DNA from: an uncultured Candidatus Bathyarchaeia archaeon | GTDB lineage: Archaea > Thermoproteota > Bathyarchaeia > 40CM-2-53-6 | Direction: 5' to 3' | Assembly: GCA_964394935.1 (NCBI GenBank) | Contig: CAYMZN010000001.1 | Coordinates: 55,210-119,209, forward strand | Length of the DNA stretch: 64,000 nt | Shown: positions 19,352-21,618 of the stretch, one piece after another | Layout of the letters: the number at the start of each line of letters is the position of its first letter | Position numbering within the stretch: the stretch's first letter is position 1 | Program-made: the position numbers and the translations under genes | The notes under the pieces: model-generated | The model's database searches: none | The model's input: the letters and a program-made list of their open reading frames with translations, nothing else | What the model was told of the DNA's origin: nothing

Positions 19352-20205
19352 TCATGTCTGCAGGGTTCCTTTGACCAGTGTCGTATCGTATCCGAGCGGT
19401 AGAAACAGATTGACAACTGACGAGATCAAGAGTTTCACGTACGCCTCTGCATCGTAGCCGATTGATTCCTCAAATAATTCGGAGGGGACAGCGCGTTTAC
19501 TTTGCATTGTTGCTCTATCAGCGGTTACTATGTAGCGAATGCTCTGCCCCGCGTGAATGTATCCTCCTTCTCTCCGTAGTTGTTGAGCAGCAACTACTTG
19601 ATGGCTGAAGCTTTTGTATTCTTCAGGTGATTTGCTCAACCTCTTCTCGAGTGTCAGCTTCTCGGCAGGGACTTCGCCGCTTCTAATCATGCGTATGTAC
19701 TTCCTTGTCACTTCAAGCGCTTGCGGGATGAGTTCGCGAAGTTCTATCGAATTCGACGCACGCGAAAGAAGGATTAGGATTTCTCTTTGACAGTCGCCGA
19801 CTATGCCTGCTGTGTCATGGCGTCTGAGATCGATCCCACGGGTCTTCATTGTTCCGTCTCGGAAGATGCCGTAGTATCTATTCAGCACAGGGATGCGAGG
19901 GTTGGTCCTGGAATTTAGGAAGACTATCCATTTGTAGATTCCTTCGAAACTTATCGGCAGGTCTAGTTCCGTTTCGATCTCGCGGCATAAGTTATGGTAT
20001 TCTTGTTCTGATGCGTTCTCTTTTCTGAGCCAGAGCGAGTCCACTATCCCGTGGATGACGTGGAAGCCTCTTGATTCAGCGATGGCACTTGCCCTTTGGA
20101 GAGCTTCCCGTGCGTAGGCGCAGGTTGCGATGTGTGCATCGATCTTGCCAAACCGCGCGTTCTTGAACCCAAGGTAGCCGACTGCTCGGTTTCGATTTAC
20201 TCATC
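19352..20205 (-). CDS. family-B DNA polymerase homolog (inactivated), C-terminal fragment after frameshift
   Basis: The frame is open upstream of the annotated GTG with no start codon and reads [11 protein letters not shown] (motif B-like), then GFHVIHGIVDS where YGDTDS (motif C) is expected, then KTRGIDLRRHD (the KxxGxxxxRRD region). Confidence 0.65.
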
Positions 20206-20211
20206 GAGCAC

Positions 20212-21618
20212 CTATGAGCAGACTAGGATCCATTTGAGCGCGGCTTGGCGTTGATCGTATCGCGTTCGTGTCGGAGGATCCTTCGTCTCATTCCTCCAGC
20301 GTTTGTACTCGGCTCGTTTCTTGAGTAGGACCTCAAGTGAGGCGGGGACGATCCCCTGCCGGCGTTTACATATGCGGAAGCCAACCTCTGGAACACGGTT
20401 GGGCGAGTCGGGACAGCATTCGCAGTTTACGGTCTCACCGCTCAGGTTGTTCTTCGACATGATCGTCGGATACAGTGAAGAGAAGTCGACTTCGCCAACC
20501 CAATCGTGAACTCCAAACTTTGGCTCATAGACGAACCCGCCTCGGTCGGCTAGGAGAAGATTGTTTCCGTCCTTGAAGTCTTCAGGTTGAGACTTGTTCC
20601 AAGGAATCATTACTCCTCGCTTTATGGCGTGGTAGATCTGGAGCGACGACATGCTTGTTCCAATCGTACTACGCGAGGCACGTTGGAGTGGGATGATGCA
20701 TGTTCGGGCAACCTCTATGAGACCTTCGAGACCGCAGTCGGTGTCGATGAAGCTGTTGCTGTAGTCTAGGTGTAGTCGGCCCATTAGGCGGGCTGCGGTG
20801 CTACGGTAGTAGATTCTTCCGTAGCTGAAGTAGCTTCGGCCTGTGACCTCGAAGACCTGCAGCGGTGCATGCTCTCTGCCAAGTACAAGTTTGTGGAGTG
20901 CGACGTGTTCTTTGGCGCGTTGGGCTATGTACGGGAAGATGAAGAAGTCGCCGCCGTCGGTGCGTACAATATCTGGATCGAACTCGTTGACCGCCCTAAC
21001 AAGGCCTAGTAGTTTTTCGGCTTCCGAGCCTGAGTCGATCCGTCTTTCCTCATGCTCCATAGTGATGGTTATGGTGTCGATCGGGTCGTTCAGAGTCGGT
21101 ATACGCTTGCTCGTCTTCGTGCTGACGGTCAGCTTGGCGATCCTGAATGGTGGGACCTCATATTTTGTGGATTCGGATGAATCGAGAAGACGCCAAAATA
21201 CGTGGTCGTTGTGGGTTTCGGCTTCGACATAAGCTAATGGGAAGAGATCTTTCTGGTAGAGGTACATCTGTGATGATGGTATGTCAACATCATATGGTCT
21301 GTACTTGCCTCCGTAGGCTGCAAGCCGCTGGATTTTCTGTGCTAGTGCTGTAGCTTCACGGTCAGAGAAGACCTTGATCTCAAGAACCTTAGACAGTGAT
21401 GAATCGTTTGGCCTCTCGAACCTCTCAACGAAACTGTATCGGTCACTGAGTTCAGGCCGAGCGACAAGGCCCAGCAGGTCGGTGAAGTTCCCGGCGATGT
21501 GGATCCTCGGGGTCCACTCGTCTACAAGTCTTACGCATTCACCGTCGCGTTTCTTCAGCCAAATAACCATGCAGCCTGATTTTGGGTAGAGGTCGAAGAG
21601 CCAGCCTTCTGTCTTCAC
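20212..21618 (-). CDS. family-B DNA polymerase homolog (inactivated), N-terminal exonuclease + palm motif A fragment
   Basis: Motif A [12 protein letters not shown] is intact. Exo I is DVD instead of DIE, and Exo II is [11 protein letters not shown] instead of NxxxFDxxY. The ORF ends inside motif B ([12 protein letters not shown]...stop). Confidence 0.75.
   Translation of the reverse strand: [468 protein letters not shown]

Follow-up and report, generated by a model that had tools for sequence, protein, structure and literature searches.

A predicted 32-nucleotide bulge-helix-bulge intron in motif B of a PolB2 DNA polymerase gene from an uncultured Bathyarchaeia archaeon

A family-B polymerase gene split within motif B

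We analyzed a stretch of 64,000 nucleotides (nt) from an uncultured Candidatus Bathyarchaeia archaeon (the window; positions 55,210 to 119,209 of the forward strand of contig CAYMZN010000001.1, GenBank assembly GCA_964394935.1), and within it a family-B DNA polymerase gene that lies on the minus strand at 21618..19352 and is split within polymerase motif B. The subject of this report is a 32-nt insert at the break and the case for reading it as an archaeal bulge-helix-bulge (BHB) intron. From a GTG start at 21618, a minus-strand open reading frame (ORF) runs to 20212, comprising 468 codons and ending in a TAG at 20212-20214, and a second minus-strand frame is open from 20191 and continues down to a stop at 19352. 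Gene callers annotate two ORFs here, of 468 and 230 amino acids (aa), and independent ENA and NCBI assemblies both list the N-terminal fragment as a 468-aa protein of its own. Both gene pieces are recognized as family B by the Pfam models PF03104 and PF00136. A first-pass annotation of this DNA had reported a switch of reading frame near 20205-20215, inside motif B, with no start codon for the downstream frame. The two frames are indeed there and no start precedes the conserved GYLGF stretch, but what separates them is an insert of 32 nt rather than a single-base shift.

The catalytic motifs of this polymerase are partly degenerate, as the first-pass annotation had also stated, and each of its motif readings held up on inspection. 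Exo I reads YDVDIP, with D-V-D in place of D-x-E; Exo II is degenerate, with Ile227 aligned to the catalytic Asp of Pyrococcus abyssi PolB in a pairwise alignment; and the Y-x3-D of Exo III is represented, in an alignment of homologs, by Y329...K333. The exonuclease catalytic motifs are thus disrupted, as in members of the PolB2 family. Motif A is intact and retains its catalytic Asp. Motif C, HGIVDS, aligns to YIDTDG of P. abyssi PolB, so that the first Asp is replaced by Ile514 and the distal Asp516 is kept. Because H512, I514, V515, D516, and S517 are invariant across 16 aligned homologs, the degenerate motifs are, judged from these alignments, native to the family. A continuous ORF with an intact YGDTDS motif had been offered as the outcome that would refute the first-pass reading, and that test does not apply, since HGIVDS is what the family itself carries.

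PolB2 has been defined in three studies (Rogozin 2008, PMC2527604; Makarova 2014, PMC4104785; Timinskas 2025, PMC11791011), the first of which describes the loss of the first Asp of motif C, together with the Tyr, and retention of the distal Asp. The disrupted Exo motifs, the motif C pattern, and the order of the genes for iRadA, an 84-aa protein, and the polymerase agree in identifying the predicted protein as PolB2 (Dpo2-like), an assignment made from motifs and gene order. The best NCBIfam models are NF004418 and NF004416, both with scores below the model cutoffs. The first-pass annotation had likened the protein to the inactivated PolB family of euryarchaea. The match to that family (PMC2527604) stands, and its euryarchaeal origin does not, the window being from Bathyarchaeia; metagenome-assembled genomes (MAGs) of Bathyarchaeia or Bathyarchaeota supply most of the close homologs with a named source and 22 of the 23 genomes in which we found an interrupted gene. 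The label "inactivated" is outdated as well and should not be assumed for this protein, because Sulfolobus Dpo2, a PolB2, is a robust exonuclease-free polymerase and an active extender in translesion synthesis (PMC8764526). Several archaeal PolB2 contigs are filed under bacterial names (L023, DATIYC010000159.1; P0107; P0139; labeled Acidiferrales, Angelobacter, or Dormibacteraeota) and are probably mis-binned.

At the break, the N-terminal fragment matches positions 10-435 of NF004418 and the C-terminal fragment matches positions 437-704. Because the profile is contiguous across the break, the interruption is best described as an insert of about 32 nt between the codons for Ser468 and Gly470, with no protein sequence missing, and not as an indel; the same contiguity, which leaves 32 extra nt, was our reason for rejecting a single-base indel or recoding event. 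The stretch that spans the junction is invariant across the 16 aligned homologs, and KW[I/V]LVCSFGYLG is present in 105 of 120 listed homologs. The insert would fall in phase 1, after the first base of the Phe469 codon, and this last exon base together with the first bases of the insert creates an in-frame stop, U^AG (the caret marks the splice site here and below). When the 32 nt are removed in silico, the coding sequence is 2235 nt long, specifies 744 aa, and has its only stop at the end, and the predicted junction in the window lineage reads CCTAGTCTGCTCAT joined to TCGGCTACCTTGGGTTC. Group I and group II introns were rejected as candidates on size, inserts at this site being 20-33 nt long against a ribozyme core of hundreds of nucleotides. 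An Rfam scan of the insert region gave no match at E ≤ 1.

Fold, conservation, and distribution of the insert

RNA folding of the minus strand of 20150-20250 gave a minimum free energy (MFE) of -40.9 kcal/mol, compared to a mean of -28.4 kcal/mol for shuffled sequences (z = -3.9). In the MFE layout, the outermost element is the outer helix, UAGU(C)/(G)GCUA; a second helix, CUGCUC/GAGCAG, comes next, followed by a 3-nt bulge in the 5' strand (AUA) and then by the inner hairpin. In the canonical reading of this fold (Table 1), two 3-nt bulges lie on opposite strands around a 4-bp central helix, with flanking helices on the exon side (h) and the intron side (h'). The inner helix has 3-5 bp and directly adjoins the bulges, and the outer helix, 5 bp long and 93% paired, lies beyond one U·Y mismatch.

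For the cbf5 introns of archaea, cleavage falls between the second and third residues of each bulge (PMC2738675). Applied in silico, this rule excises exactly 20182..20213, and the joined exons (...UGC UCA U + UC GGC UAC...) encode Cys-Ser-Phe-Gly-Tyr, matching the invariant sequence of the homologs. Excision of 32 nt in registers 1-3 nt upstream was also considered and was rejected, as it yields Ser-Val-Gly instead of the invariant Ser-Phe-Gly. When we scanned the window for BHB motifs with a filter for the joining of ORFs, the PolB2 site was the only convincing match. Across the window and about 0.9 Mb of related loci, the same search for BHB-split genes otherwise returned only adjacent-gene junctions and chance matches, such as the junctions between PPB2 and PolB2 and between an aldolase gene and the next gene. 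No tRNA genes were found in the 64-kb window, so it offers no local tRNA intron for comparison.

We scanned other genomes with a degenerate DNA pattern that specifies WILVC, then 18-48 nt, then GYLGFKNA. This pattern matches the window once, with 0 matches expected by chance, and it identified an insert at the same site in 23 species-representative genomes, of which 22 are labeled Bathyarchaeia or Bathyarchaeota and one is evidently mis-binned, and in at least 119 metagenome contigs. As for whether orthologs are single ORFs, which the first-pass annotation had suggested checking, the 105 of 120 listed homologs noted above are uninterrupted at the junction, and the genes in these genomes and contigs are not. 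Among the matches listed, counted together with the window and L001, an ENA contig identical to it, the commonest insert lengths are 32 nt (41 sequences), 24 nt (30), 20 nt (17), 21 nt (13), 25 nt (13), and 22 nt (11), with 23, 26, 27, 29, 31, and 33 nt occurring more rarely; most of these are not multiples of three.

Together with the window and L001, which comes from an independent assembly, the 23 genomes and 119 metagenome contigs among the matches listed make a set of 144 sequences. In all 144 the unspliced frame terminates directly after the Ser or Ala codon, at a UAG or UAA whose U closes the exon and whose other two bases open the insert, and in all 144 a single splice rule restores WILVC[S/A]FGYLG. 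We also observed that, with this arrangement, every unspliced transcript would end cleanly after residue 468 without running into the shifted frame. Beyond the junction, the predicted spliced ORF continues for 260-314 codons to the normal C terminus in 122 of the 126 loci that have a stop codon inside the locus.

To describe the conservation of the fold, we counted bulges and helices in 110 distinct sequences and base pairs in an ungapped alignment of 104 distinct rows and 44 columns. All 110 sequences have AU^A as the 5' bulge and A-N^U as the 3' bulge, and in 109 of them the 4-bp central helix is fully paired. The first three pairs of the inner helix are formed in 98-100% of sequences (83-100% over five pairs), and they are made in different ways (G-C, C-G, U-A, U-G, and A-U). 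Over the 104 rows, 94.4% of cells are paired, compared to 23-54% for slid partners. Covariation scores 0.270, compared to 0.143 for shuffles and at most 0.076 for the slid controls; none of 500 shuffles reached either the observed percentage paired or the observed score. Six pairs show changes on both sides, a count reached by 10 of the 500 shuffles. In one clade, the Ser codon (UCA) has become Ala (GCA) while the intron partner has changed from A or G to C, so that a U-A or U-G pair of the central helix becomes G-C. Judged from the alignment, the two changes compensate for each other across a codon and the insert.

Between the window and 11 intron-bearing relatives, the ratio of nonsynonymous to synonymous substitution rates (dN/dS) is 0.10-0.17 for exon 1 and 0.10-0.16 for exon 2, values that indicate purifying selection on both. 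The value for exon 2 implies that it is translated in its own frame, and splicing would be needed for this, since exon 1 otherwise cannot reach the frame of exon 2.

We also placed the gene copies on a neighbor-joining tree of 64 spliced products and 105 uninterrupted homologs, which is crude and reflects biased sampling. The intron-bearing copies form a divergent basal clade made up of the 32-nt Ala variant, a clade with inserts of 31-33 nt that includes the window, and several clades with inserts of 20-29 nt, among which intronless genes are interspersed. In six alleles that lack the intron, the sequence is TGY TCN TTC GGN, the exact product of deletion. Because parsimony on this tree requires 12 changes and assigns presence of the intron to the midpoint root, these sequences suggest an old intron with repeated precise losses.

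Table 1. Coordinates of the predicted PolB2 exons, the insert and its fold, and the upstream genes of the operon (window positions; caret, predicted cut)
Feature	Position	Strand	Content or basis
PolB2 exon 1	20214..21618	-	Residues 1-468 and first base (U) of Phe469 codon; degenerate Exo I-III, intact motif A
Predicted mini-intron, 32 nt	20182..20213	-	5'-AGGUGCUCGAUGAGUAAAUCGAAACCGAGCAG-3'
PolB2 exon 2	19352..20181	-	Starts with UC, finishing Phe469 codon; motif C HGIVDS, thumb domain
PolB2 stop codon	19352-19354	-	End of exon 2
Whole BHB motif	20175..20225	-	RNA folding and covariation
BHB outer helix	20221-20225 paired with 20175-20179	-	5 bp
BHB central helix, 4 bp	20216-20219 (GCUC) paired with 20184-20187 (GAGC)	-	Canonical reading
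BHB 5' bulge (A-U^A)	20215, 20214 ^ 20213	-	Canonical reading
BHB 3' bulge (A-G^U)	20183, 20182 ^ 20181	-	Canonical reading
BHB inner hairpin	20188-20212	-	RNA folding
PPB2-position protein, 84 aa, small helical	21615..21869	-	Between iRadA and PolB2; arCOG07300 position
iRadA, 341 aa, Rad51/RadA family	21874..22899	-	Pfam PF08423 at 8e-08

Proposed splicing and alternative explanations

From these sequence comparisons we conclude, with a probability of about 0.88, that the PolB2 gene carries a 32-nt archaeal BHB intron in motif B, inserted in phase 1 within the codon for Phe469. In the pathway that we propose, transcription of the iRadA-PPB2-PolB2 operon would provide the starting RNA, in which exon and intron bases at the junction would form an outer helix, a 4-bp helix, and an inner hairpin, set apart by two 3-nt bulges. 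Each bulge would then be cut between its second and third nucleotides by the tRNA-splicing endonuclease (EndA), and an RtcB-type ligase would join the exons and re-form UUC (Phe), giving an mRNA for the 744-aa PolB2. An unspliced mRNA would end at the UAG at the 5' splice site and could give only the 468-aa N-terminal fragment. EndA and RtcB are the presumed executors in these uncultured archaea; according to the literature, genes for EndA and an RNA ligase are universal in archaea, and they would not be expected within the window itself.

Several observations weigh against an intron of this exact form. The MFE structure usually lengthens the central helix by 1-2 pairs, which displaces the 3' bulge two bases outward. 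In 77 of the 110 sequences it contains a clean 5' bulge together with the 4-bp helix and the inner helix beside it; the 3' bulge is fully free in only 6 of the 110, and 5 of these have the canonical central helix. Because the base beside the 3' bulge is always in a U·C or U·U mismatch, the 3' splice site is slightly relaxed. The 4-bp register is based on the coding outcome and the symmetry of the bulges, each of which begins with A; the MFE alone is not decisive for the 3' bulge. About seven related loci (L007, L028, L034, L054, L058, L077, and L128) have extra stops or frameshifts at other points in the gene, which may be sequencing errors, local decay, or further unrecognized elements. Finally, as an indirect sign of a spliced, cDNA-like sequence, we sought an uninterrupted protein near-identical to that of the abundant intron-bearing L019 lineage in a set of 5.8 billion proteins and found none above 80% identity, the best full-length match to the spliced L019 protein having 78%. 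The extra lesions themselves include a TAA in GR*DLPLRV (L028) and a TAG in DFS*LYP (L128).

The alternative that survives best, although we consider it very improbable, is that the two ORFs encode separate polypeptides that assemble, as with the split PolB of Methanobacteriales. Split PolB genes do exist (PMC4104785) and the 468-aa and 230-aa gene calls agree with such an arrangement, but the downstream frame has no consistent in-frame start: in 62 of the 110 sequences no start lies at or ahead of GYLG, and in 36 of the 110 there is none within 45 codons. The 230-aa ORF, as called, would begin inside motif C and lose 46 invariant residues. Two polypeptides would also leave unexplained both the covariation of the BHB motif and the fact that the U before the insert and the UY after it join to Phe in 144 of 144 sequences.

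It is less probable again that the ribosome hops over the insert or shifts frame at it, the recoding site that the first-pass annotation had named as one of three possible causes of the break. In its favor, the presumed take-off codon is followed at once by a stop and then by a hairpin, an arrangement that resembles bypassing in T4 gene 60. The take-off codon, UCA, is nevertheless mismatched to the landing codon, GCA or GUA, and the residue that would precede Gly470 is Ile in 88, Val in 16, Phe in 5, and Leu in 1 of the 110 sequences, while Phe is found there in every uninterrupted homolog. An endonuclease, and not a ribosome, would need the fixed bulges and the base pairs that covary between the 5' exon and the insert's 3' end, and we know of no translational bypassing in archaea.

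Two further explanations are remote. In one, true decay, the second cause named in the first-pass annotation, has produced a pseudogene with the insert as its disabling lesion. In its favor, the gene is split by an in-frame stop and a change of frame, additional stops or frameshifts occur in a few related loci, and PolB2 is patchy in distribution and dispensable (PMC4104785). Against it, the insert has been kept at an identical position in at least 110 distinct sequences from many samples, with compensatory base-pair changes inside it, and the shifted frame of exon 2 remains open as described above (122 of 126 loci), under constraint similar to that on exon 1. In the other, EndA would cleave the BHB motif without religation of the exons, so that the element would down-regulate the mRNA; regulatory processing of a BHB motif is known for the 5' untranslated region (UTR) of HVO_1309 (PMC7714728), but the purifying selection on exon 2 and the split Phe codon make sense solely if the joined exons are translated.

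A sequencing or assembly artefact, the last of the three causes, is barely credible even for a window drawn from a MAG, where errors occur: 32 nt is no homopolymer slip, the conservation, the selection on exon 2, and the covariation all contradict it, the identical insert is present in the independent ENA assembly (L001), and homologous inserts occur in at least 142 further loci from different projects and assemblers.

Operon context, known splicing systems, and implications

The PolB2 gene is preceded by genes for the 84-aa protein and iRadA (Table 1), the order by which the iRadA-PPB2-PolB2 operon is defined (PMC4104785, PMC11791011) and which is also found in the homologous loci L145 and L146. 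No Walker A motif (GxxxxGK[ST]) was matched in iRadA. The 84-aa protein has a precomputed match to PF26485 (DUF8156) on record, and our own Pfam scan found no match for it in the local Pfam copy; by position, size, and the DUF8156 tag, we infer that it is arCOG07300/PPB2. Its stop codon overlaps the GTG start of PolB2 (GTGA, 21615..21618), an overlap that fits translational coupling within the operon. Spliced PolB2 would, by analogy with Sulfolobus Dpo2, act as an exonuclease-free extender or translesion polymerase in a complex with iRadA and PPB2.

Intervening sequences of a second kind are found nearby and in related genes. The canonical RadA gene, just upstream of the operon at 22936..25233 on the minus strand, bears a LAGLIDADG intein of about 442 aa inside its Walker A motif (GEFGAGK^C...HN^S, with carets at the intein boundaries). 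Six Bathyarchaeial PolB2 homologs (P0011, P0013, P0014, P0018, P0025, and P0026) carry an intein between Cys467 and Ser468. Because this PolB2 intein site is 4 nt upstream of the BHB intron site, motif B is a common insertion hot spot for two unrelated kinds of intervening sequence. It could even be a shared homing hot spot, although we regard this as doubtful, with the mini-intron as the remnant of a longer mobile intron that had an endonuclease. On the other side of PolB2, the downstream neighbor (17492..18685, minus strand) encodes a fusion of a formaldehyde-activating enzyme and an OMP-decarboxylase-like (Hps-type) domain (Pfam Fae and OMPdecase).

The closest precedent for the proposed intron is that of the cbf5 pre-mRNA in Crenarchaeota (Watanabe et al. 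2002; Yokobori et al. 2009, PMC2738675). Both introns are short, lie in coding sequence, are defined by a BHB motif, and follow the same bulge cutting rule; both are in phase 1 in a catalytic motif, at an Asp codon in cbf5 and at Phe469 in PolB2; and both are present in some lineages and cleanly absent from close relatives. They differ in the gene and in the host, which is Bathyarchaeia for PolB2 and Desulfurococcales or Sulfolobales for cbf5. In addition, the PolB2 motif is near canonical, with its 4-bp helix and 3-nt bulges, while most cbf5 introns are unconventional or relaxed, and the splicing of PolB2 is a prediction from sequence.

The BHB introns of archaeal tRNA and rRNA and the 5'-UTR intron of Haloferax HVO_1309 (PMC7714728) have the recognition motif and the presumed EndA/RtcB machinery in common with the PolB2 intron, which is similar in size to mini tRNA introns. 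Those introns lie in noncoding RNA or a UTR, whereas the PolB2 intron breaks a reading frame and needs precise removal. The inteins of family-B polymerases likewise interrupt a conserved polymerase motif, but an intein keeps the reading frame, spans hundreds of residues, and is excised from the protein, while the PolB2 element is 20-33 nt long, usually out of frame, and begins with a stop.

A more distant parallel is the splicing of HAC1/XBP1 mRNA, in which Ire1 and an RNA ligase (RtcB in metazoans, Trl1 in yeast) act at stem-loop sites and change the reading frame of the mRNA. Endonuclease-and-ligase splicing that changes the frame is common to this system and the proposed PolB2 intron, but HAC1/XBP1 uses another nuclease and other recognition motifs and is regulated by stress. 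It is conceivable, although we regard it as doubtful, that an old, vertically inherited intron gates a mutagenic extender polymerase, with full-length PolB2 dependent on EndA and RtcB. If so, this would be an archaeal counterpart of regulated mRNA splicing of the HAC1/XBP1 type.

In published work on PolB2/Dpo2 with iRadA and PPB2 (PMC2527604, PMC4104785, PMC8764526, PMC11791011), the signature of the host gene and the gene order are like those of the window, and an interrupted PolB2 is not mentioned; in the text of the PolB2 operon survey (PMC11791011), the terms intron, split, frameshift, intein, and Bathyarchae all have 0 matches. According to a 2020 paper that adds the 5'-UTR case (PMC7714728), no BHB intron other than that of cbf5 had been reported within an archaeal coding sequence, and our search of the literature on introns in PolB2, in Bathyarchaeota, and in other archaeal coding sequences, which covered subscription journals poorly, found only cbf5 and HVO_1309. 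Thus, PolB2 would be the second archaeal protein-coding gene known to have a BHB-type intron.

Gene callers break PolB2 into two "fragments" or a pseudogene in many MAGs, and because of this, the family will be undercounted in surveys of archaeal repair polymerases unless the intron is modeled. A second case, in another gene and in the widespread, uncultured Bathyarchaeia, would mean that pre-mRNA splicing by the tRNA machinery is no one-off. More than 100 natural variants of this predicted intron are available. They fall into length classes from 20 to 33 nt and include compensatory changes extending into a codon as well as several losses that look precise, and this set could be used to study how such introns originate, persist, and are lost in coding sequence.

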